Shown piece by piece: positions 1 to 41,490 of a stretch of DNA of 64,000 nt; the stretch's first letter is position 1, and every line of letters starts with the position of its first letter. The stretch is from NCBI RefSeq assembly GCF_048403405.1, contig NZ_CP183129.1. One strand, given 5' to 3'. This stretch comes from Escherichia coli (GTDB taxonomy: Bacteria > Pseudomonadota > Gammaproteobacteria > Enterobacterales > Enterobacteriaceae). The notes under the pieces were generated by a model, which saw nothing but the letters and a program-made list of their open reading frames with translations, was not told the DNA's origin and ran no database searches. A program made the position numbers and the translations under genes.

Positions 1-634
1 CAGCGATTTTGCCAGTAACCCGGAACCACGTTGCCCCTGCATTTTGCTGCTGGATGTTTCTGGTTCTATGAACGGTAGACCTATTAATGAACTTAACGCC
101 GGATTGGTTACCTTTCGCGATGAGCTGCTTGCCGATTCGCTGGCCTTAAAAAGAGTGGAACTCGGCATTGTGACGTTCGGCCCGGTGCATGTGGAACAAC
201 CCTTTACCAGCGCCGCTAATTTTTTCCCGCCCATCCTGTTTGCCCAGGGCGATACACCAATGGGCGCTGCCATTACCAAAGCCCTGGATATGGTAGAGGA
301 GCGGAAACGTGAGTATCGTGCAAATGGTATTTCGTATTATCGCCCGTGGATTTTCCTGATCACCGATGGCGCTCCAACCGATGAGTGGCAGGCTGCCGCC
401 AACAAAGTGTTTCAGGGGGAAGAAGATAAGAAGTTTGCCTTCTTTTCCATCGGTGTTCAGGGGGCGGATATGAAGACTTTGGCACAAATCAGCGTTCGTC
501 AGCCTTTGCCACTGCAGGGATTACAATTCCGTGAACTGTTTAGCTGGTTATCCAGTTCGCTGCGTTCGGTTTCCCGCTCCACGCCGGGAACGGAAGTTGT
601 GCTGGAAGCGCCAAAAGGCTGGACGTCAGTGTGA
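1..634 (+). CDS. yegL: VWA (von Willebrand factor A / TerY-like) domain protein YegL, 5' end cut by window edge
   Basis: The frame is open from nt 2 ([23 protein letters not shown]...). It has a MIDAS-type DxSxS motif (DVSGSM) and ITDGAPTD. The TGA stop at 632-634 overlaps the GTG start of the next gene (GTGA). Matches E. coli YegL as recalled. Confidence 0.9.
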
Positions 635-1392
635 GCTGGCGTCTGGTCTATGCATCAACCGTTGGAACGTCGCACATCAGCGCGGACTTGCCTTGCCAGG
701 ATGCCTGCCAGATGCAGGTTGCCTGGTTAAATGACCAGCAGCCATTATTGTCGGTATTTGTCGCCGATGGCGCAGGTAGCGTCTCGCAGGGTGGCGAAGG
801 TGCGGAGCTTGCCGTTAATGAAGCGATGGCTTATATGATGCAAAAATTGCAGGGCGGGGAATTGGGGCTTAATGATGTCCTCGCAACGGATATTGTGCTG
901 ACCGTTCGTCAGCGACTTTTTGCCGAGGCGGAAGCCAAAGAATTAGCTGTTCGCGATTTTGCCTGCACGTTTATGGGATTGATTTCATCAGCTAATGGCA
1001 CCCTGATTATGCAGATTGGCGATGGCGGCGTGGTGGTAGATTTGGGGCACGGTCTGCAACTGCCGCTCACGCCGATGGTAGGTGAATATGCCAATATGAC
1101 ACACTTCATTACTGATGAAGATGCCGTTTCCAGACTGGAAACTTTCACCAGCACTGAGCGTGCGCATAAAGTTGCAGCATTTACGGATGGTATCCAGCGG
1201 CTGGCGTTAAATATGCTGGATAATTCTCCCCATGTGCCTTTCTTTACCCCGTTTTTCAATGGGCTGGCGTCAGCAACGCAGGAACAACTCGATTTATTAC
1301 CTGAATTGTTAAAGCAGTTTTTGTCCAGCCCGGCGGTAAACGAGCGTACGGATGATGATAAAACGTTGGCACTGGCGCTGTGGTTACCATGA
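631..1392 (+). CDS. yegK: PP2C-like Ser/Thr protein phosphatase YegK (PphC)
   Basis: 253 aa. PP2C_2-like acidic/Gly motifs ([19 protein letters not shown]). GTG start overlaps the yegL stop, and its TGA stop overlaps the yegI ATG (ATGA at 1389-1392). Confidence 0.9.
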
Positions 1393-3329
1393 AACCCACT
1401 TTATATACTGCTACTGGTGAGTGCGTTACGCCAGGCTGTGAACTGGGCAAAGGTGGCGAAGGCGCGGTTTATGATATCGAGGAGTTTGTCGATAGCGTCG
1501 CCAAGATTTATCACACGCCGCCACCCGCCTTAAAACAGGACAAACTTGCCTTTATGGCTGCGACAGCTGACGCACAGTTGCTGAATTATGTCGCCTGGCC
1601 GCAGGCAACGCTTCACGGTGGACGAGGCGGAAAAGTTATCGGTTTTATGATGCCAAAAGTTTCTGGTAAAGAACCGATTCATATGATCTATAGCCCGGCA
1701 CATCGTCGCCAGAGTTACCCTCATTGTGCGTGGGATTTTCTACTCTATGTTGCGCGTAATATTGCTTCATCTTTTGCTACGGTTCACGAGCACGGGCATG
1801 TCGTGGGTGACGTAAACCAGAACAGCTTTATGGTAGGCCGTGACAGCAAAGTGGTGTTGATTGATAGCGACTCCTTTCAGATTAACGCCAACGGCACACT
1901 GCATTTATGCGAAGTCGGCGTGTCGCATTTTACGCCGCCAGAGCTGCAAACCTTGCCATCATTTGTCGGCTTTGAACGCACCGCGAATCACGATAATTTT
2001 GGCCTTGCGTTGCTGATTTTTCACGTCTTGTTTGGTGGTCGGCATCCTTATTCCGGTGTACCGCTTATCTCTGATGCGGGTAATGCGCTGGAGACGGATA
2101 TTGCCCATTTCCGTTATGCCTACGCGTCAGATAATCAGCGACGTGGTTTAAAACCGCCGCCACGATCTATTCCGCTGTCGATGTTACCGGGCGATGTTGA
2201 AGCCATGTTTCAGCAGGCATTCACGGAAAGTGGCGTGGCAACCGCGCGTCCGACGGCAAAAGCGTGGGTAGCGGCACTTGATTTACTACGCCAACAGTTA
2301 AAGAAATGTACCGTTTCGGCAATGCATGTTTACCCCGGTCATTTGACTGACTGCCCGTGGTGTGCGCTGGATAATCAAGGCGTTATCTATTTTATTGATC
2401 TCGGCGAAGAGGTCATTACCACCGGCGGTGATTTTGTGCTGGCGAAAGTCTGGGCAATGGTGATGGCGTCAGTAGCACCACCAGCATTGCAACTGCCATT
2501 ACCCGATCATTTCCAACCGACTGGCAGGCCGCTTCCTTTAGGCCTGTTACGGCGTGAATACATCATTCTGATTGAGATCGCACTGTCAGCGTTATCGCTG
2601 CTGCTTTGCGGCCTTCAGGTAGAACCGCGTTATATCATTTTGGTTCCCGTGCTGGCGGCTATCTGGATTATTGGCAGCCTGACAAGCAAAGCGTACAAAG
2701 CAGAAATCCAGCAACGTCGTGAGGCGTTTAATCGCGCGAAAATGGACTATGACCATTTAGTAAGCCAGATCCAACGGCTGGGCGGGCTGGAAGGTTTTAT
2801 CGCCAAACGGGCGATGATCGAAAAAATGAAGGACGAAATTCTCGGGTTACCGGAAGAGGAGAAACGCGCTCTGGCAGCACTTCATGACACTGCAAGGGAA
2901 CGGCAGAAGCAGAAGTTTCTGGAGGGATTTTTTATTGATGTTGCCTCTATTCCCGGCGTTGGCCCTGCGCGTAAAGCGGCGTTACGGTCTTTTGGTATTG
3001 AAACAGCCGCAGATGTTACCCGTCGTGGCGTTAAGCAAGTGAAAGGGTTTGGCGACCATCTGACCCAGGCGGTTATCGACTGGAAAGCGAGTTGTGAACG
3101 CCGTTTTGTGTTCAGGCCGAACGAAGCGGTAACGCCTGCAGACAGACAAGCGGTACTGACTAAAATGGCCGCCAAACGACATCGGCTGGAATCGACGTTG
3201 ACTGTCGGCGCGACAGAGTTGCAGCGATTCCGCCTTCAAGCTCCAGCACGGACCATGCCGTTGATGGAACCGTTACGTCAGGCGGCAGAAAAACTGGCTC
3301 AGGCGCAGGCTGAATTAAGCCGTTGCTGA
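1389..3329 (+). CDS. yegI: Eukaryote-like Ser/Thr protein kinase YegI with TM hairpin, coiled coil and C-terminal tandem HhH motifs
   Basis: Kinase motifs: G-loop GKGGEG, VAKIY lysine, catalytic loop VVGDVNQNSF, DSD (DFG-equivalent) and TPPE. Then CPWC, two hydrophobic helices (IILIEIALSALSLLLCGL, IILVPVLAAIWIIGSL), and IPGVGPARKAALRSFGI plus VKGFGDHLTQAVIDW. The start is taken at ATG 1389 (ATGA coupling). An in-frame GTG at 1380 is an alternative. Confidence 0.9.
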   Translation: MKPTLYTATGECVTPGCELGKGGEGAVYDIEEFVDSVAKIYHTPPPALKQDKLAFMAATADAQLLNYVAWPQATLHGGRGGKVIGFMMPKVSGKEPIHMIYSPAHRRQSYPHCAWDFLLYVARNIASSFATVHEHGHVVGDVNQNSFMVGRDSKVVLIDSDSFQINANGTLHLCEVGVSHFTPPELQTLPSFVGFERTANHDNFGLALLIFHVLFGGRHPYSGVPLISDAGNALETDIAHFRYAYASDNQRRGLKPPPRSIPLSMLPGDVEAMFQQAFTESGVATARPTAKAWVAALDLLRQQLKKCTVSAMHVYPGHLTDCPWCALDNQGVIYFIDLGEEVITTGGDFVLAKVWAMVMASVAPPALQLPLPDHFQPTGRPLPLGLLRREYIILIEIALSALSLLLCGLQVEPRYIILVPVLAAIWIIGSLTSKAYKAEIQQRREAFNRAKMDYDHLVSQIQRLGGLEGFIAKRAMIEKMKDEILGLPEEEKRALAALHDTARERQKQKFLEGFFIDVASIPGVGPARKAALRSFGIETAADVTRRGVKQVKGFGDHLTQAVIDWKASCERRFVFRPNEAVTPADRQAVLTKMAAKRHRLESTLTVGATELQRFRLQAPARTMPLMEPLRQAAEKLAQAQAELSRC

Positions 3330-3341
3330 GCCAGTTTTCAA

Positions 3342-4694
3342 TTAACGAAACACCACTTCCGCCCAGCGTGCCAGCCCGGCGGTGACGGAGCCAAAGTCAT
3401 CGCCGCCTGCAATCGGAATGCCCGGCAACTGTTCTGCCAGCGCCTTTTTAATCAGCGGTGAACGGGCGCTACCGCCGGTCAGGTAGATAACGTCCGGTTT
3501 TTCCTGGGCGTTATCCAGGGCCAGTTGCACCTGTTCCAGAATCCGCGCCAGTGGCTGGCTGAGGGCGCTTTCCAGCCCTTGCTGGCTAATCAGCGTAGCC
3601 AGTTCATCGCTGATAAACGGCAGTGAGGCGCGGGTTTCCGCTACGCTTGAAAGCGCAATTTTGCTCTCTTCTGCGCTACGTACCAGGCGATAGCTTAAAC
3701 GCTGACGCCAGACTTTCTGTAACAGGGCCACTTTTTCCGGTTCGCGGGCATCGCGTACCAGATCGTTAAGCAGACGACCGTTGGCACTACTGTAGAAATC
3801 ACTTTGCGCAGGGACGTCGTTGATGGCAACCGCATTCCACCACGGCAGAATCGGCAGGGCGATGCCTTTTTCGGTTTCGCCCCCCATGCCCAGTAACGGC
3901 ATCAGGTTTTTAAACGCCAGTGCGATATCCAGATCGTTACCGCCAATACGGCAACCACTGTGACCCAGCAGGCTGGCTTCACGATCGAGACGCGAACGCC
4001 ACTGCGGCCCCATCAGCAGCAATGAACAGTCAGTCGTACCACCGCCGATATCCACCACCAGCACCCGTTTTTCTTCCTGCAAGGTGGCTTCGTAATCCAG
4101 CCCAGCCGCGACCGGCTCGTACTGGAATACCACATCCTTAAACCCGGCACGCTTCGCCGCGCGTTCCAGAATCCCCTGCGCCTGGGTGTTTGCTTCATCG
4201 CCGCCAAGCCCCTGGAAGTTGATAGGGCGACCAATTACCGCCTGAGTAATCGCATCCGGCAGCTGTGCCTGCGCCTGCTGGCGAATGTGCAACATCATTG
4301 CGCAGACCAGATCCTCAAACAGCGCTACCTGCTGCGGTTTTAAGCCGCTGGCACCGAGGAACGATTTTGGTGATTTCACAAACCACACTTCTTCTGGATC
4401 ATCAATGTACTGTGCCAGTGAGGAAAGACCGAACTGCACGCTTTTCGCCGTAACATCGATATCTTCTTCGCGGTTATAACGAATCGCCCGACGCAACAGC
4501 GCCTGCGTTTCATCGTCGTCTGCCGGAACATCATGATGGCGGTACAGCCATTCGCTTACCGCTTCACGCGTTGGCGCGCAAAGCATTGAAGGCAGCAGCG
4601 TGCTGTCGTTTTCCATTTTCAGTAATTGCGGCTTACCGTCGCGCATGACCGCCACTGAACAGTTTGCTGTACCGTAATCAAAACCAATAAACAC
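3342..4694 (-). CDS. yegD: Hsp70/actin-fold ATPase (DnaK-like nucleotide-binding domain only) YegD
   Basis: N-terminal FIGFDYGTANCSVA phosphate-1 motif, VVDIGGGTTD phosphate-2 motif and YLTGGSARSP adenosine motif. Choosing the internal GTG start gives 450 aa, matching K-12 YegD. The ORF-track N-terminal extension was trimmed. Confidence 0.88.
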   Translation of the reverse strand: MFIGFDYGTANCSVAVMRDGKPQLLKMENDSTLLPSMLCAPTREAVSEWLYRHHDVPADDDETQALLRRAIRYNREEDIDVTAKSVQFGLSSLAQYIDDPEEVWFVKSPKSFLGASGLKPQQVALFEDLVCAMMLHIRQQAQAQLPDAITQAVIGRPINFQGLGGDEANTQAQGILERAAKRAGFKDVVFQYEPVAAGLDYEATLQEEKRVLVVDIGGGTTDCSLLLMGPQWRSRLDREASLLGHSGCRIGGNDLDIALAFKNLMPLLGMGGETEKGIALPILPWWNAVAINDVPAQSDFYSSANGRLLNDLVRDAREPEKVALLQKVWRQRLSYRLVRSAEESKIALSSVAETRASLPFISDELATLISQQGLESALSQPLARILEQVQLALDNAQEKPDVIYLTGGSARSPLIKKALAEQLPGIPIAGGDDFGSVTAGLARWAEVVFR

Positions 4695-4827: not shown

Positions 4828-5685
4828 ATGTATACCCTGAACTGGCAGCCGCCGTATGACTGGTCGTGGATGTTGGGATTTCTCGCCGCCCGTGCGGTGA
4901 ACGGTGTGGAAACGGTCGCTGACGATTATTATGCCCGTAGTCTGGCGGTGGGCGAATATCGCGGCGTGGTGACTGCTATTCCGGATATAGCCCGCCATAC
5001 TCTGCACATAAATTTAAGTGCAGGTTTAGAACCTGTTGCCGCAGAGTGTCTGGCGAAAATGAGCCGCCTGTTTGATCTGCAATGTAACCCGCAGATTGTT
5101 AACGGTGCGTTGGGCAAGTTAGGCGCGGCGCGGCCCGGATTGCGTTTACCCGGCAGTGTTGATGCTTTTGAGCAGGGCGTGCGGGCGATTTTAGGCCAAC
5201 TGGTGAGCGTGGCGATGGCGGCAAAATTGACCGCCAGAGTGGCACAGCTTTATGGCGAACGGCTGGATGATTTTCCGGATTATGTCTGCTTCCCCACGCC
5301 TCAGCGGCTGGCAGCAGCCGACCCGCAGGCATTAAAAGCGTTAGGTATGCCGTTGAAACGGGCAGAGGCGCTGATTAATCTGGCAAATGCGGCGCTGGAG
5401 GGCACCTTACCAATGACAATTCCGGGCGACGTAGAGCAAGCGATGAAAACGCTGCAAACTTTTCCGGGTATCGGGCGCTGGACGGCGAATTATTTCGCCT
5501 TACGTGGCTGGCAGGCGAAAGATGTTTTCCTGCCGGATGATTATCTGATTAAACAGCGATTTCCGGGAATGACACCGGCACAAATCCGCCGTTATGCCGA
5601 ACGCTGGAAGCCCTGGCGTTCTTATGCGCTGTTGCATATCTGGTATACGGAAGGCTGGCAACCAGACGGAACGGACGAATTGTAG
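4828..5685 (+). CDS. alkA: 3-methyladenine DNA glycosylase II
   Basis: 285 aa. MYTLNWQPPYDWSWMLGFLAARAV... matches AlkA. Contains the HhH-GPD motif region (FPGIGRWTANYFALRG). Confidence 0.95.
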   Translation: MYTLNWQPPYDWSWMLGFLAARAVNGVETVADDYYARSLAVGEYRGVVTAIPDIARHTLHINLSAGLEPVAAECLAKMSRLFDLQCNPQIVNGALGKLGAARPGLRLPGSVDAFEQGVRAILGQLVSVAMAAKLTARVAQLYGERLDDFPDYVCFPTPQRLAAADPQALKALGMPLKRAEALINLANAALEGTLPMTIPGDVEQAMKTLQTFPGIGRWTANYFALRGWQAKDVFLPDDYLIKQRFPGMTPAQIRRYAERWKPWRSYALLHIWYTEGWQPDGTDEL

Positions 5686-5706
5686 GCCTGATACGCCGCA
5701 TCAGGC
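5686..5706. repeat. REP-like hairpin between convergent alkA and dgcE
   Basis: gcctgat-acgccgc-atcaggc is a perfect 7-bp stem directly after the alkA stop. It is a typical REP-type sequence and probably a bidirectional transcript-end structure. Confidence 0.5.
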
Positions 5707-5722
5707 GATGGGGAAGCACGCC

Positions 5723-12599: not shown

Positions 12600-12890
12600 C
12601 TAAGCAGCATGTGGATATTGAATTTCAATACGTTGAATATGCAATCCTGCATGAGCCATCATGGTGATCAATTTATCGATACTAAAGATCTGGATCTTAC
12701 CTCTGGCAAGTTCAGATATGCGAGGTTGAGTGACCCCTAAAGCAGACGCTGCCTGGGCCTGGCTAAACCCTTGTTGTTCAATCCAGTTATTAATGATCGT
12801 TACAAGTTCGGCACGGATCCGCATATTTTCCGCTTGTTCAGGGGTGTCACTCACCGCATCCCACACACTATCAAAGGTTTCAATTTTCAT
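12600..12890 (-). CDS. XRE-family HTH antitoxin (HigA-like)
   Basis: MKIETFDSVWDAV...QAQAASALGVTQPRISELARGKIQIFSIDKLITM is a typical HTH_XRE antitoxin. The ATG at 12890 overlaps the toxin stop by 11 nt (ATGAAAATTGA). The ORF-track start at 12908 is less likely. Confidence 0.8.
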   Translation of the reverse strand: MKIETFDSVWDAVSDTPEQAENMRIRAELVTIINNWIEQQGFSQAQAASALGVTQPRISELARGKIQIFSIDKLITMMAHAGLHIQRIEIQYPHAA

Positions 12891-13218
12891 TTTTCCGCTC
12901 CTGAACAAGTTCTTTATAGCGTCGTTTGGCTAAATCAACATCCGATTGACTGGTAGTCTGTGTTTTCTTTTGAAAACAATGCAATACGTAAACCGCTTCT
13001 TCAAATTTTGCGATATACATGACGCGATAGATCCCATCAGCATCGCGAGTACGAATCTCTCGCACACCAGGGCCGATAGTTGAAAAAGGTTTCCAGTCGT
13101 ATGGGTTTAACCCTTGTTGGATCCTGTCGAGTTGATAGCCAATTTCCTGTCGAGACGATTCTGGAAATGCGCGTAAATCGTCAAGACTGGTATCAAGAAA
13201 AGCCAGCTTTTTTCTCAT
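12880..13218 (-). CDS. RelE/HigB-type (Gp49-like) type II toxin
   Basis: 112 aa. GIYRVMYIAKFEEAVYVLHCFQKKTQTTSQSDVDLAKRRYKEL is characteristic of the Gp49/HigB-like RelE superfamily. The toxin lies upstream of the antitoxin, which is the HigBA order. Confidence 0.8.
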   Translation of the reverse strand: MRKKLAFLDTSLDDLRAFPESSRQEIGYQLDRIQQGLNPYDWKPFSTIGPGVREIRTRDADGIYRVMYIAKFEEAVYVLHCFQKKTQTTSQSDVDLAKRRYKELVQERKNEN

Positions 13219-13253
13219 TACTCCATCCTTAGATTATACTAAATTTTGTATAA

Positions 13254-13286
13254 ATCAAATGCGCAGTTTGAACCTGCGCATTTGAT
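13254..13286 (-). terminator. Perfect 13-bp palindrome (probable yegH terminator; possible TA operator)
   Basis: atcaaatgcgcag - 7 nt - ctgcgcatttgat, starting 7 nt after the yegH stop. On the minus strand it is followed by UUAUACAAAAUUU and lies about 35 nt upstream of the toxin ATG. Confidence 0.5.
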
Positions 13287-13292
13287 GTTTTA

Positions 13293-14876
13293 TCACACTT
13301 CGTACTCCATCTCGCCATCCTTACGTAGCGGAATAATTTGCACCTTCTGCACGCGATGGCTTTCCACCTGCAACGTTTTAAGCAAATAATCCCCCACCTG
13401 AACTTCTTCGCCAGGTTTTGGAATACGCTGCAAATATTCCATCAATAGCCCGGCAATGGTGTGATATTCACGTTTTTCATCCAGCGGCAGCGGCACATAT
13501 TGCACCAGATCTTCCAGCGGCATATGACCATTCGCCGTCCAGGAACCGTCGGCATTCTTCTGAATATCATGGCGGGCGTCGATCTCTTCCACTTCATTCG
13601 GTAAGTTACCGGCAATGGTTTCTGTGACGTCACTTAATGTCACAATCCCTTCCACCGAGCCAAACTCATCCACTACAAAAGCAAAGTGTGTGCGGGCATT
13701 ACGGAACTGCTCCAGGGCAGGTAACAACGGCAAGGTTTCCGGGAACACCAGCGGCTGGCGAATCAACACCCGCAGGTTGAGCGGTTCGCCGCGCAGTGAC
13801 TGTTGTAGCAGGTCGATAACGTGAACAACACCGAGCAAATCTTCCGCGTCATCGCCATCAGTAACCACCAGTCGCGTGTGCTGATTTCGCTCCAGCAACT
13901 GGCGGATCTCGTCTTCCGGCGCGTTGAGATCGATATGCTCAATATCGTGGCGCGACGTCATAATGCTGCTGACGGTACGCTGGTTAAGATTAAGTACCCG
14001 CTCAATCATCCGCCGTTCCTGCGGATTAAAGATTTGCTGGTTACCATGATCCACCAGCATAGACGCGGTTTCGGCGTCCAGTTCCGCATCTTCTTTTTGC
14101 CCGCTAAGCAGGCGCATTACCGCTTCGGTAGTCCGCTGGCGCAGCGTCTGGTTAGCGGAAAGAAAACGTCGCCGGTTAAAGATAGCCAACTGATTGAGCG
14201 CCTCGATCATCACCGAGAAACCAATAGCAGCGTACAGGTAGCCTTTCGGAATGACGAAGCCGAAACCTTCTGCCACCAGGCTAAAGCCAATCATCAACAG
14301 GAAGCTTAAGCAGAGAATAACGATCGTCGGGTGACTGTTAACAAATTGCGTTAACGGCTTGCTGGCCATCAACATCAGGCTGATAGCGATAACGACGGCG
14401 GCCATCATGACCAGTAAATGGTCGACCATCCCGACGGCGGTAATCACCGAGTCGAGTGAGAAGATGGCGTCCAGTACCACAATTTGTGTCACCACCCCCC
14501 AGAACTTCGCACCTTTGCGTTGTGTGGGGTTATTGCTGTCTTTCCCCTCCAGCCGTTCGTTCAGCTCCATCGTGGCTTTGAACAGCAGGAAGAAACCACC
14601 AAACAGCATGATTAAATCGCGGGCGCTAAAGGTAAACGAGCGGAAGCTGAACAGCGGTTGAGTCAGGGTGACCAGCCAGGAGATTGACGCCAGCAGTAAC
14701 AGGCGCATTAACATCGCCAGCAGCAGCCCGGTAACCCGTGCGCGGTCGCGCTGCTTCGGCGGTAGTTTTTCGGCGAGGATGGCAATAAAGACCAGGTTAT
14801 CAATGCCGAGGACCAGTTCGATCACAATCAGCGTGATTAACCCGGCCCAGATAGACGGATCGGCAATCCATTCCAT
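13293..14876 (-). CDS. yegH: Inner membrane protein YegH (TerC-like membrane domain + CBS pair + CorC/HlyC C-terminal domain)
   Basis: The internal start [13 protein letters not shown] gives 527 aa, equal to K-12 YegH. The 22-codon ORF-track extension was rejected. Confidence 0.92.
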
Positions 14877-38226: not shown

Positions 38227-39222
38227 ATGAACGATAACGTTTTGCTCATAGGAGCTTCCGGATTCGTAGGAACCCGACTACTTGAAACGGCAATTGCTGA
38301 CTTTAATATCAAGAACCTGGACAAACAGCAGAGCCACTTTTATCCAGAAATCACACAGATTGGCGATGTTCGTGATCAACAGGCACTCGACCAGGCGTTA
38401 GCCGGTTTTGACACTGTTGTACTACTGGCAGCGGAACACCGCGATGACGTCAGCCCTACTTCTCTCTATTATGATGTCAACGTTCAGGGTACCCGCAATG
38501 TGCTGGCGGCCATGGAAAAAAATGGCGTTAAAAATATCATCTTTACCAGTTCCGTTGCTGTTTATGGTTTGAACAAACACAACCCTGACGAAAACCATCC
38601 ACACGATCCTTTCAACCACTACGGCAAAAGTAAGTGGCAGGCAGAGGAAGTGCTGCGTGAATGGTATAACAAAGCACCAACAGAACGTTCATTAACTATC
38701 ATCCGTCCTACCGTTATCTTCGGTGAACGCAACCGCGGTAACGTCTATAACTTGCTGAAACAGATCGCTGGCGGCAAGTTTATGATGGTGGGCGCAGGGA
38801 CTAACTATAAGTCCATGGCTTATGTTGGAAACATTGTTGAGTTTATCAAGTACAAACTGAAGAATGTTGCCGCAGGTTATGAGGTTTATAACTACGTTGA
38901 TAAGCCAGACCTGAACATGAACCAGTTGGTTGCTGAAGTTGAACAAAGCCTGAACAAAAAGATCCCTTCTATGCACTTGCCTTACCCACTAGGAATGCTG
39001 GGTGGATATTGCTTTGATATCCTGAGCAAAATTACGGGCAAAAAATACGCTGTCAGCTCAGTGCGCGTGAAAAAATTCTGCGCAACAACACAGTTTGACG
39101 CAACGAAAGTGCATTCTTCAGGTTTTGTGGCACCGTATACGCTGTCGCAAGGTCTGGATCGAACACTGCAGTATGAATTCGTTCATGCCAAAAAAGACGA
39201 CATAACGTTTGTTTCTGAGTAA
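38227..39222 (+). CDS. gne: SDR-family UDP-GlcNAc/GalNAc 4-epimerase (Gne; Z3206-type)
   Basis: 331 aa. LLIGASGFVGTRLL Rossmann motif and YGKSKWQAE YxxxK. It lies between wcaM and galF, as in serogroups whose O unit contains GalNAc. Absent from K-12 as I recall. Confidence 0.8.
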   Translation: MNDNVLLIGASGFVGTRLLETAIADFNIKNLDKQQSHFYPEITQIGDVRDQQALDQALAGFDTVVLLAAEHRDDVSPTSLYYDVNVQGTRNVLAAMEKNGVKNIIFTSSVAVYGLNKHNPDENHPHDPFNHYGKSKWQAEEVLREWYNKAPTERSLTIIRPTVIFGERNRGNVYNLLKQIAGGKFMMVGAGTNYKSMAYVGNIVEFIKYKLKNVAAGYEVYNYVDKPDLNMNQLVAEVEQSLNKKIPSMHLPYPLGMLGGYCFDILSKITGKKYAVSSVRVKKFCATTQFDATKVHSSGFVAPYTLSQGLDRTLQYEFVHAKKDDITFVSE

Positions 39223-39464
39223 TGCAGACGAGTCAGAGAAATAAGGACCAGGTTGGACTACGATTATTCGGAAAGAGGTACTGATTAAATTATCAGTATG
39301 CGGAATTCCGAGTAATCCGAGTAACCCAGATGCTGATGGTGTGTAGTGTTATTCTAAGGTTTAAGCAAAGTTATGCGGAACTAAGCTTTGGTATATAGCC
39401 ATAACGTTTGGCTAACCTATGGCAATAATTTACGCACTATCAGCCACTTAGAGGTAGGAAAAGA

Positions 39465-40358
39465 ATGACGAATTTAAAAGCAGTTATACCGGTAGCAGGT
39501 CTTGGGATGCATATGTTGCCTGCCACTAAGGCGATTCCCAAAGAGATGCTACCGATCGTCGACAAGCCAATGATTCAGTACATTGTTGACGAGATTGTGG
39601 CTGCAGGGATCAAAGAAATCCTCCTGGTAACTCACGCGTCCAAGAACGCAGTCGAAAACCACTTCGACACCTCTTATGAATTAGAATCTCTCCTTGAACA
39701 GCGCGTGAAGCGTCAACTGCTGGCGGAAGTACAGTCTATCTGTCCGCCGGGCGTGACCATTATGAACGTGCGTCAGGGCGAACCTTTAGGTTTAGGCCAC
39801 TCCATTTTGTGTGCACGACCCGCCATTGGTGACAACCCATTTGTCGTGGTATTGCCGGACGTTGTGATCGACGACGCCAGTGCCGACCCGCTGCGCTACA
39901 ACCTTGCTGCCATGATTGCACGTTTCAACGAAACGGGCCGCAGCCAGGTGCTGGCAAAACGTATGCCGGGTGACCTCTCTGAATACTCCGTCATTCAGAC
40001 TAAAGAGCCGCTGGATCGTGAAGGTAAAGTCAGCCGTATTGTTGAATTCATAGAAAAGCCGGATCAGCCGCAGACGCTGGACTCAGACATCATGGCCGTT
40101 GGTCGATATGTGCTTTCTGCCGATATTTGGCCGGAACTTGAACGCACTCAGCCTGGTGCATGGGGGCGTATTCAGCTGACTGATGCCATTGCCGAACTGG
40201 CGAAAAAACAGTCCGTTGATGCCATGCTGATGACTGGTGACAGCTATGACTGCGGTAAAAAAATGGGTTATATGCAGGCGTTTGTGAAGTATGGACTGCG
40301 CAACCTCAAAGAAGGGGCGAAGTTCCGCAAAGGCATTGAGAAACTGTTAAGCGAATAA
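39465..40358 (+). CDS. galF: UTP-glucose-1-phosphate uridylyltransferase-like GalF
   Basis: 297 aa. [43 protein letters not shown] matches GalF. Confidence 0.96.
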
Positions 40359-40618
40359 TGAAAATCTGACCGAATGTGACGGTTGGCAAGGAAACTATAA
40401 CAGCAGTGAAGATTCGTGGCGAAAGTAATTTGTTGCGAATATTCCTGCCGTTATTTTGTATAAACAATCAGAATAACAAATAGTTAGCAATAGGCTTTTC
40501 GTCAAAGTTTTCCTGGATTTTCCTTGTTTCCAGAACGGATTGGTAAGACAATTAGCGTTTGAGTTTCGAGGGAGATGCAGCAATGTCTCTCAGTAACAGT
40601 ACGCAATATCAATGAGTT

Positions 40619-40657
40619 CAGTGCACTGGTAGCTGTTAAGCCAGGGGCGGTAGCGTG
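40619..40657 (+). promoter_or_regulatory. JUMPStart element with ops site (GGCGGTAGCGTG, 40646-40657) heading the O-antigen cluster
   Basis: cagtgcactggtagctgttaagccaggggcggtagcgtg is nearly identical to the wza copy at 15318-15356. Confidence 0.88.
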
Positions 40658-40667
40658 GATTGATGGA

Positions 40668-41489
40668 ATGAAAAATAAGTGCCCACGAATTGCAGTAATA
40701 ATGTCGGTTTATATTAATGATAAATTTAATGAGTTTAAAGAGGCTTTTGACAGTATTATTAATCAAACATACTCTAACTTTGTTTTCTTTATTTATGCCG
40801 ATGGCAAGATAAATCCAGATATTGAAAGTTTTTTGCAAAATTATAATTCGCAACATGTGATTTTCATTAGAAGTGAAAAAAATAAGGGATTAGCTTATGC
40901 TTTGAATAAATTAATATCAGTGGCGCTAGTTAATAATGAATTTGATTTTATTGCCAGAATGGATGCTGATGATATAAGTTTAGAAGATAGATTTCAACGA
41001 CAAATAGATTTTTTTATGGCTAACCCTGAGTTAGATGTTGTTGGTGGGTTGTGTCAAGAGTTTGGTGGTGAGTCAGCAAGAGAAAAATGCAAGATCTATT
41101 TTACAGATGAAGCCATTAAAAACAATGCCTTTAAAAAATGTCCTTTCGTTCATCCAACCGTGATGTTTAAATCGTCTGTATTTAATAACGGGATGCGATA
41201 CCCTGAAAATCAGCCACTGACAGAAGATATGTGCTTATGGCTCGAGTTAATATCCGCGAATAAAAAGTTTGCAAATATTGACTCCGTTCTTCTAAAGTAC
41301 AGAATTAATGAGCAGACGCTAAAAAGAAGAAGAGGTTTGAATAAGGCTGTAACCGAATTATCCACAAGATTGTATTACGCCAAGAAACTTAAAATGCTTA
41401 GCGTACGGAATTTGTTATATATATTAATCCATTTTGGTGTCAGAGTCCTTTCTTCAAATATATTTAAACTTGTACATAAGTTAAATTAA
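40668..41489 (+). CDS. O-antigen GT2-family glycosyltransferase
   Basis: 273 aa from MKNKCPRIAVIMSVYIND (GT2 N-terminal signature) with the DXD region ARMDADDIS. The start was chosen downstream of the ops element. The ORF-track start at 40575 spans JUMPStart and was rejected. Confidence 0.8.
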   Translation: MKNKCPRIAVIMSVYINDKFNEFKEAFDSIINQTYSNFVFFIYADGKINPDIESFLQNYNSQHVIFIRSEKNKGLAYALNKLISVALVNNEFDFIARMDADDISLEDRFQRQIDFFMANPELDVVGGLCQEFGGESAREKCKIYFTDEAIKNNAFKKCPFVHPTVMFKSSVFNNGMRYPENQPLTEDMCLWLELISANKKFANIDSVLLKYRINEQTLKRRRGLNKAVTELSTRLYYAKKLKMLSVRNLLYILIHFGVRVLSSNIFKLVHKLN

Positions 41490-41490
41490 A

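Follow-up and report, generated by a model that had tools for sequence, protein, structure and literature searches.

The yegL-pphC-yegI operon of Escherichia coli: a contiguous VWA–phosphatase–kinase triad with TerY-P-type architecture

The triad and its proteins

The window analyzed here, a stretch of 64,000 nucleotides (nt) from Escherichia coli (contig NZ_CP183129.1 of assembly GCF_048403405.1), begins with three chromosomal genes, yegL, pphC (yegK) and yegI, all located on the plus strand within positions 1–3329, as established from the list of open reading frames (ORFs) and from the raw sequence. The first 5 kb of the window are 100% identical to E. coli WP4-S18-ESBL-07, where the RefSeq names of the three genes are yegL, pphC and yegI, with the convergent yegD next and alkA and dgcE thereafter. 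The locus, the activities of the two enzymes, the overlaps between the genes and the yegJ polymorphism discussed below are already known from the work of Rajagopalan & Dworkin (bioRxiv 10.1101/303594 and 10.1101/819920; J Bacteriol 2018 and FEBS Lett 2020). What we add is the occurrence of the triad as a cassette across phyla and on plasmids, the kinship of YegL with TerY, the domain layout of YegI, and a negative outcome of searches with the PADLOC models.

The first gene, yegL (1–634, plus strand), encodes a cytoplasmic TerY-family VWA protein with an intact metal ion-dependent adhesion site (MIDAS) and is cut by the edge of the window, such that window position 1 corresponds to nt 27 of the gene and the 5' 26 nt lie outside. 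It is followed by pphC (631–1392, plus strand; GTG start), which encodes a Mn-dependent PP2C-type Ser/Thr phosphatase named PphC in RefSeq, and by yegI (1389–3329, plus strand), which encodes a 646-residue atypical Hanks-type Ser/Thr kinase of the inner membrane (RefSeq 'protein kinase YegI'). Direct reading of the sequence bears out the first-pass annotation of this DNA as a same-strand, three-gene operon with 4-nt overlaps: the stop codon of yegL overlaps the start of pphC in GTGA at 631–634, and the stop codon of pphC overlaps the yegI ATG in ATGA at 1389–1392. The overlaps are not due to chance, as seen from a set of 56 related loci in other species for which the gene models are clean. The 4-nt overlap between the yegL and pphC homologs is found in 50 of these loci; between the pphC and yegI homologs, the overlap is present in 15 and a gap of 1–13 nt in 40, a long gap at this junction being confined to the K-12 type.

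YegL matches the Pfam VWA profile with E = 7.7e-10. Its MIDAS, already seen as intact at first pass, is composed of D27-x-S29-x-S31 (nt 53–67), T94 (254–256) and D131 (365–367), and these residues are invariant both in alignment A4 and in the family alignment, plasmid TerY proteins included. A tblastn search connects YegL with genes annotated as TerY or TerY-C in the ter clusters of approximately 2300 plasmids (E = 1e-10 to 1e-16), and phmmer aligns it with TerY1 of IncHI2 at 77.5 bits; judged by its sequence, YegL is a genuine TerY-family VWA protein. It is also the most conserved member of the triad, the median identity to the E. coli protein across phyla being 71% for YegL, 52% for YegK and 50% for YegI. 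A sequence search of PDB with YegL yielded no match, and a full-text literature search for 'yegL' returned unrelated papers only.

YegK belongs to the PP2C superfamily, as the first reading of the sequence had suggested, given the match to Pfam PP2C_2 (PF13672; E = 1.6e-50, 172 bits against a cut-off of 24) and the presence of the metal-binding Asp; conservation in the family alignment extends to the DGAGS motif (D46) and to an RTDDDK cluster at the C-terminus. The protein has been reported to possess Mn-dependent PP2C activity that is abolished in the D46N mutant (Rajagopalan & Dworkin), and the same authors report dephosphorylation of YegI by PphC. The statement of the first-pass annotation that YegI and PphC are an active kinase/phosphatase pair thus agrees with the published record.

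The kinase domain of YegI, delineated by homolog alignments, comprises residues 1–300 (1389–2288, plus strand). Its key residues, that is, the glycine-rich loop (G-loop, G20–G25), K39, the catalytic D141, N143, D159-S160-D161-S162 and TPPE at 182–185, are invariant or at least 95% conserved in alignments of 15, 62 and 54 homologs, and across phyla the family keeps the G-loop, K39, D141, N143, D159, D161, S162 and HFTPPELQ. Positions N145 and S146 are not conserved in the wider family, so that the YegI family lacks the canonical catalytic-loop Asn. We infer that the second Asp of the DSD motif may take the place of this Asn, in agreement with the loss of activity in the D161G mutant (Rajagopalan & Dworkin). 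The same authors demonstrated that YegI is an active, Mn-preferring kinase that depends on K39 and D141 (K39D and D141N are inactive) and that autophosphorylates on serines around DSD with second-order, dimer-type kinetics. In their alignment, YegI retains 7 of the 10 residues that are invariant in bacterial Hanks kinases: the catalytic loop is VGDxxQxS versus HRDxxPxN (HRD to VGD, and the catalytic-loop Asn to Ser), the essential DSD replaces DFG, and the Glu of motif III is replaced by Asp.

Profile searches convey the same degree of divergence. YegI shows no match to Pfam Pkinase (PF00069) even at E<=10, and only 4 of 62 close relatives produce weak matches; a Pseudomonas homolog with 41% identity to YegI scores 33.8 bits, over the cut-off of 31.7, with the whole domain covered. 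A search of PDB sequences with the YegI family profile found no match. The AlphaFold2 (AF2) model, built from 62 sequences, is moderate, with a confidence score (pLDDT) of 68.6, and in a Foldseek search it matches protein kinases including PknB. Because the model is of low confidence in the kinase C-lobe, it was not used for active-site geometry, and the claims made here on the active site rest on the alignments and the published mutants. Taken at its word, the first-pass assertion that YegI keeps every catalytic kinase motif goes too far: GKGGEG, VAKIY, GDVNQNSF, DSD and TPPE are all present, but with 7 of the 10 invariant residues and no Pkinase match, the YegI family appears to be a strongly diverged Hanks-type kinase.

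In the strain analyzed here, YegI codon 17 (window 1437–1439), directly before the glycine-rich loop, encodes Cys (GCELGKGGEG), that is, R17C. Every other full-length sequence from Escherichia that was inspected shows Arg or His in this position, Arg accounts for at least 90% of the family, and Cys17 was otherwise encountered only in the identical database entry P0001.

Downstream of the kinase domain, YegI contains, in this order, a CHCC motif that is a putative zinc knuckle, two membrane helices, a coiled coil and a helix-hairpin-helix (HhH) region. The CHCC motif (C307-x5-H313-x8-C322-x2-C325; 2307–2363, plus strand) comes immediately after the kinase domain and may be a zinc knuckle or ribbon; each of the four residues is at least 95% conserved across phyla, and in the AF2 model the region folds into a beta-hairpin followed by a helix with pLDDT of 63–78. 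Since no Pfam family, zinc ribbons included, matches the motif, metal binding is inferred. The two hydrophobic helices (residues ~389–435; 2553–2693, plus strand), separated by a short QVEPR loop and apparent as Kyte-Doolittle peaks at residues 391–411 and 413–435, constitute a membrane anchor whose sequence varies between homologs with its hydrophobicity kept. Rajagopalan & Dworkin assign YegI a two-pass topology by PhoA-LacZ, with both termini in the cytoplasm.

The predicted HhH region (residues 515–575; 2931–3113, plus strand), marked by IPGVGPARKAALRSFGIETAADV and VKGFG, lies inside the C-terminal coiled-coil module (residues ~440–646). HHH_5 matches occur in 24 of 62 family members, the motif GIxTAAD is conserved in the family alignment, and the AF2 model reaches pLDDT of ~85–94 in this region; no OB-fold family was detected in YegI with Pfam. 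The C-terminus of the Sphingomonas kinase homolog combines HhH with a topoisomerase-type C4 zinc ribbon, and other TerY-P types carry an oligonucleotide-binding (OB) fold or a zinc ribbon at the kinase C-terminus, according to PMC11090510. Among these related kinases, nucleic-acid-binding modules are swapped or added at the C-terminus.

Conservation, spread and genomic context

A scan of one genome per species identified 173 YegI relatives, of which the best 80 loci were fetched. All three homologs are present, in the same order, in 78 of these 80 loci, the remaining two being contigs that end early upstream, so the triad is a self-contained cassette in at least 78 species, in which the gene order and the overlaps are kept and the flanks are not. 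The hosts include Beta- and Gammaproteobacteria, Desulfobacterota, Nitrospira, Planctomycetota, Verrucomicrobiota, Acidobacteriota, Sericytochromatia and metagenome-assembled genomes of Methanoregula. The identity to YegI is at least 91% within Escherichia, ~62% in a few Klebsiella and ~60% in Burkholderiales, and the cassette is missing from most Enterobacteriaceae. Homologs are also found on large plasmids of Pseudomonas, Cupriavidus, Rhizobium and Sphingomonas, with Agrobacterium contributing the largest number of plasmid records; conjugative plasmids make up 46 of the 83 that gave a match. Phage genomes yielded a single weak match.

No conserved fourth gene or effector accompanies the cassette: the most widespread family among the 705 ORFs that flank 67 loci is represented in 5 loci. 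The 150 nearest neighbors include 6 DUF4236 proteins (the most frequent family), two each of integrases, transposases and PIN domains, and single examples of JetA, QatA, PifA, TIR, WYL and several PADLOC candidate families. These neighbors fit mobile or island contexts in some genomes; the counts come without a baseline, and no enrichment is claimed.

Some of these contexts deserve mention in their own right. In three Oxalobacteraceae loci (L016, L017 and L021), a DUF4236 gene is located ~100–150 nt upstream of the YegL homolog in the divergent orientation, and in a fourth (L023), the DUF4236 match is found ~0.5 kb past the downstream end of the cassette; the ter cluster of an IncHI2 plasmid (L087, 5838–7046) also includes a DUF4236 gene, next to terW and terY. 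On a Rhizobium rhizogenes plasmid (L084, 1392–4494 and 9643–11343), a distant triad directly follows the His-Xaa-Ser radical-SAM genes hxsB, hxsC and hxsA; after it come a gene with an SH3 domain and one of the DUF262 (GmrSD-like) type. The gene ahead of the triad in Sphingomonas encodes a HerA/FtsK-like ATPase.

Within E. coli, the locus belongs to the core genome, being present in 5423 of 5426 complete genomes. The contiguous pphC-yegI junction is the majority form, found in 3471 of the 5426 genomes (~64%), and the yegJ segment occurs in 1899–1934 genomes (~35%). BLAST of the window against MG1655 shows that a junction of 50 bp (1384–1433, plus strand) corresponds to 785 bp in K-12-type strains. 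The first-pass statement that yegJ separates pphC from yegI in K-12 and that the two genes are contiguous here is thus confirmed by the alignment with MG1655; the uninterrupted operon is nothing exceptional, the form being the prevalent one and having been published in 2018–2020. Rajagopalan & Dworkin already described the ATGA overlap in B strains (REL606) and in O157:H7, with yegJ parting pphC and yegI in K strains, and a 2026 paper repeats the description of yegJ and adds that YegJ may bind RNase E.

According to the alignment with MG1655, the K-12 yegJ form is a replacement rather than a simple insertion. The 785-bp segment, with a GC content of 37% against 51–52% for the triad, contains yegJ (Pfam DUF2314) on the opposite strand; it also changes the last three codons of pphC and brings a diverged stretch of ~15 codons to the start of yegI, the K-12 form being derived from imported DNA. 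Since the 4-nt overlap between pphC and yegI is also found in other Escherichia species and in Klebsiella spallanzanii, the contiguous form is ancestral.

The triad proteins of the window are ~95–99% identical to their K-12 counterparts, and the ratio of nonsynonymous to synonymous substitution rates (dN/dS) between the window and K-12 is 0.05 for yegL, 0.14 for yegK and 0.14 for yegI. As these low values show, the triad is maintained by selection. Unusual divergence of the locus within E. coli was considered and rejected: the 96–97% identity to most strains is shared by dgcE and therefore reflects the lineage of the strain rather than the locus. In two Shigella flexneri assemblies (L003 and L051), the homologs of yegL, yegK, yegI and yegD are broken into several frame-shifted pieces, which could represent either gene decay or sequencing error.

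The E. coli neighborhood of the triad consists of the mdtABC efflux genes, ibs/sib, yegD, alkA and dgcE. The convergent neighbor yegD (3342–4694, minus strand) encodes an Hsp70/actin-like ATPase (NCBIfam PRK11678, E = 3e-244) and was rejected as a member of the cassette, given that it adjoins the triad only in Escherichia and Shigella and in no locus outside Escherichia. The stop codons of yegI and yegD are 12 nt apart (3330–3341), with no terminator-like hairpin between them, and convergent transcription of the two genes could collide; the 2026 paper reports that yegD rises upon yegJ overexpression. Directly upstream of yegL, locus L002 (5023–5828) contains three tandem type I loci of Ibs toxin and SIB antitoxin RNA, compared to two in MG1655. 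The promoter scan revealed no sigma-70-like promoter between the Ibs/SIB loci and yegL, and in the combined scan, candidate promoters and terminators were no more numerous than in shuffled controls.

Farther downstream, alkA (4828–5722 for its 3' end and the alkA-dgcE spacer) is marked by RefSeq as frameshifted in this strain. Here the colinearity with K-12 breaks at 5669–5693, where 25 nt stand against 87 nt in K-12; the ~62 bp missing relative to K-12 span the last alkA codons and the spacer, leaving an ORF of 285 residues whose C-terminal tail is altered. The gene yegH (12839–14422), annotated as a TerC-family membrane protein, lies ~9.5 kb downstream of the triad; its proximity to a TerY-type triad may be a coincidence, although both families are named after tellurite-resistance genes. 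Farther on, the colanic acid genes are followed by an O7-type O-antigen cluster (39057–52000; rfbBDAC, the O7 wzx and wzy, and vioAB), and the window ends in the his operon, an arrangement that is ordinary E. coli synteny.

A proposed phospho-switch and its alternatives

Ser/Thr kinases are very few in E. coli. We consider it fairly probable that the uninterrupted yegL-pphC-yegI operon, the ancestral form, encodes a self-contained phospho-switch of TerY-P architecture. In the scheme we propose, clustering of the membrane-tethered YegI would switch the kinase on, the trigger possibly being nucleic acid bound by the cytoplasmic HhH/zinc module; PphC would reset YegI; and YegL would act as a phospho-regulated partner or adaptor that engages a target through the metal site of its MIDAS. 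The most likely output would be a response to stress or to foreign DNA. Overproduction of YegL and of YegI each raised endogenous DNA damage in a genome-wide overexpression screen.

Several points weigh against the switch as proposed. No substrate, trigger or phenotype of yegLKI is known; the DNA-damage phenotype results from overproduction and could be non-specific. The HHH_5 match in YegI itself (residues 515–550, E = 1.1e-3) falls below the Pfam gathering cut-off, such that DNA binding is only predicted, and the kinase C-lobe has pLDDT below 50 in the AF2 model. The promoter scan found no promoter-like site directly upstream of yegL, and the E. coli operon is almost silent, with expression barely detectable under laboratory conditions (Rajagopalan & Dworkin; the 2026 paper).

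The triad might also be a genuine anti-phage or anti-plasmid defense system, a distinct HhH-type branch of TerY-P in which foreign DNA at the membrane activates YegI, and phosphorylation via YegL blocks the invader or damages DNA. This is a possibility that we entertain with considerable doubt. Its appeal stems from the three-domain logic shared with the TerY-P systems that protect against T7-like phages (Gao et al. 2020) and, in Pseudomonas aeruginosa, against Autographiviridae (Costa et al. 2024), the latter being a validated variant that was likewise missed by hidden Markov model (HMM) tools. The patchy, horizontally moving and plasmid-borne distribution of the cassette, the defense and mobile genes among some of its neighbors (JetA, QatA, PifA, TIR, WYL, DUF262, PIN, integrases and transposases) and the DNA damage upon overproduction of YegL or YegI fit as well. 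However, neither the three proteins nor their distant relatives are matched by any TerY-P model of PADLOC; the E. coli locus belongs to the core genome and resides in a fixed position rather than in a variable island; the native copy is barely expressed; each of the defense-type neighbor families was seen only once among the 150 neighbors, without a baseline; and the weak match mentioned above is the only one in phage genomes. Furthermore, the locus is present in both E. coli B and K-12, the usual permissive hosts for T-phages, T7 among them; the native copy thus confers no obvious protection, which counts against defense. A literature search found no report linking yegI to a phage phenotype, and the abortive-infection role raised at first pass is pure conjecture.

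A purely domestic role, in which YegI and PphC form a housekeeping Ser/Thr pair adjusting host proteins during stationary phase or envelope stress, with YegL as a scaffold and no connection to foreign DNA, seems improbable to us. Many E. coli proteins do bear Ser/Thr phosphates to which no kinase has been assigned, but the cassette is missing from most Enterobacteriaceae and the identity of YegI drops steeply outside Escherichia, a pattern that horizontal acquisition fits better; moreover, flanks and host lineages as varied as these make a conserved host substrate unlikely. That the E. coli operon is a cryptic remnant devoid of function we find very hard to credit, even though expression is very low, the K-12 lineage tolerates an operon split by the 785-bp segment, and two Shigella flexneri assemblies contain fragmented copies: the reading frames are intact, dN/dS amounts to 0.05–0.14, the locus is kept in 5423 of 5426 genomes, and the purified enzymes are active.

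The phospho-switch thus remains our preferred reading. Once yegLKI is placed in a widely transferred cassette that includes a TerY-family partner and a tail that probably binds nucleic acid, the trigger and the substrate can be sought in a narrower field, and a defense hypothesis that is cheap to test emerges; as a discovery, the finding is ordinary.

Relation to known TerY systems

The TerY-P triad was defined by Anantharaman, Iyer & Aravind in 2012; we rely here on the definition as it is restated in PMC11090510 and PMC4978471. According to the former, the triad consists of a TerY-like VWA protein, a PP2C phosphatase and a Ser/Thr kinase whose C-terminus is fused to a zinc ribbon. The yegLKI operon resembles this triad in that VWA, PP2C and kinase genes are joined in one operon and the kinase is followed by a conserved Cys/His motif of the zinc type, putative in the case of YegI. 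With a TerY-family VWA protein, a PP2C phosphatase, a kinase and a conserved CHCC motif after the kinase in place, a TerY-P architecture of the locus is supported. Unlike the 2012 triad, YegI additionally contains two transmembrane helices, a coiled coil and HhH, and the E. coli copy is unlinked to ter, McrBC/CoCoNuT, FtsK/WXG100 or other DNA-processing modules. Association with ter, DNA-processing or restriction genes was not found in the other genomes either, where the flanks are varied, with an occasional HerA/FtsK-like, DUF262 or DUF4236 gene.

The PADLOC models, searched at E<=0.01 and at E<=10, do not recover this resemblance. YegL reaches 13 bits (E = 0.013) with the TerY model, YegK has no match, and YegI matches only the PD-T4-6 and MkoA kinase models and no TerY-P model; the distant plasmid triads of Pseudomonas, Rhizobium and Sphingomonas likewise receive no TerY-P call. 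Hence the designation of a TerY-P-type module given at first pass stands for the VWA/PP2C/kinase architecture but not for the PADLOC models, which match none of the three proteins, and membership of yegLKI in the validated TerY-P defense family is not supported by the available HMMs. Since the P. aeruginosa variant was also missed by HMMs, this failure weakens membership while leaving room for a similar mechanism. That variant, sought via the primers published for its cloning and sequencing, had no match in the fetched loci, viral contigs or metagenome contigs.

The systems of Gao et al. and Costa et al. substantiate the statement of the first-pass annotation that TerY-P is listed among validated anti-phage systems. 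With both of them, yegLKI shares the same three domain types in a stand-alone three-gene module; both belong to the accessory genome, unlike yegLKI with its core status in E. coli. The C-termini of the kinases also differ: the kinase of Gao et al. is a kinase-OB fusion according to PMC11090510, in contrast to the two transmembrane helices, coiled coil and HhH of YegI. A more far-reaching proposal, namely, that yegLKI is a separate, uncatalogued TerY-P branch that senses foreign nucleic acid at the inner membrane in anti-phage or anti-plasmid defense, with the E. coli copy domesticated, normally silent and split by yegJ in about one third of the strains including K-12, strikes us as unlikely.

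The kinship with TerY extends to the plasmid ter clusters. YegL aligns over the full length with TerY and TerY-C encoded in these clusters, for example, that of IncHI2, with 27–28% identity and common MIDAS residues, and shares with them the C-terminal motif F-x-W-[LVI]-[ST]-x-S...S-x-S. Unlike the plasmid proteins, YegL has an extra N-terminal 'NPEPRxP' segment, and the partners differ, such that YegL is paired with a kinase and a phosphatase, whereas plasmid TerY and TerY-C are paired with TerD-family or TerW genes.

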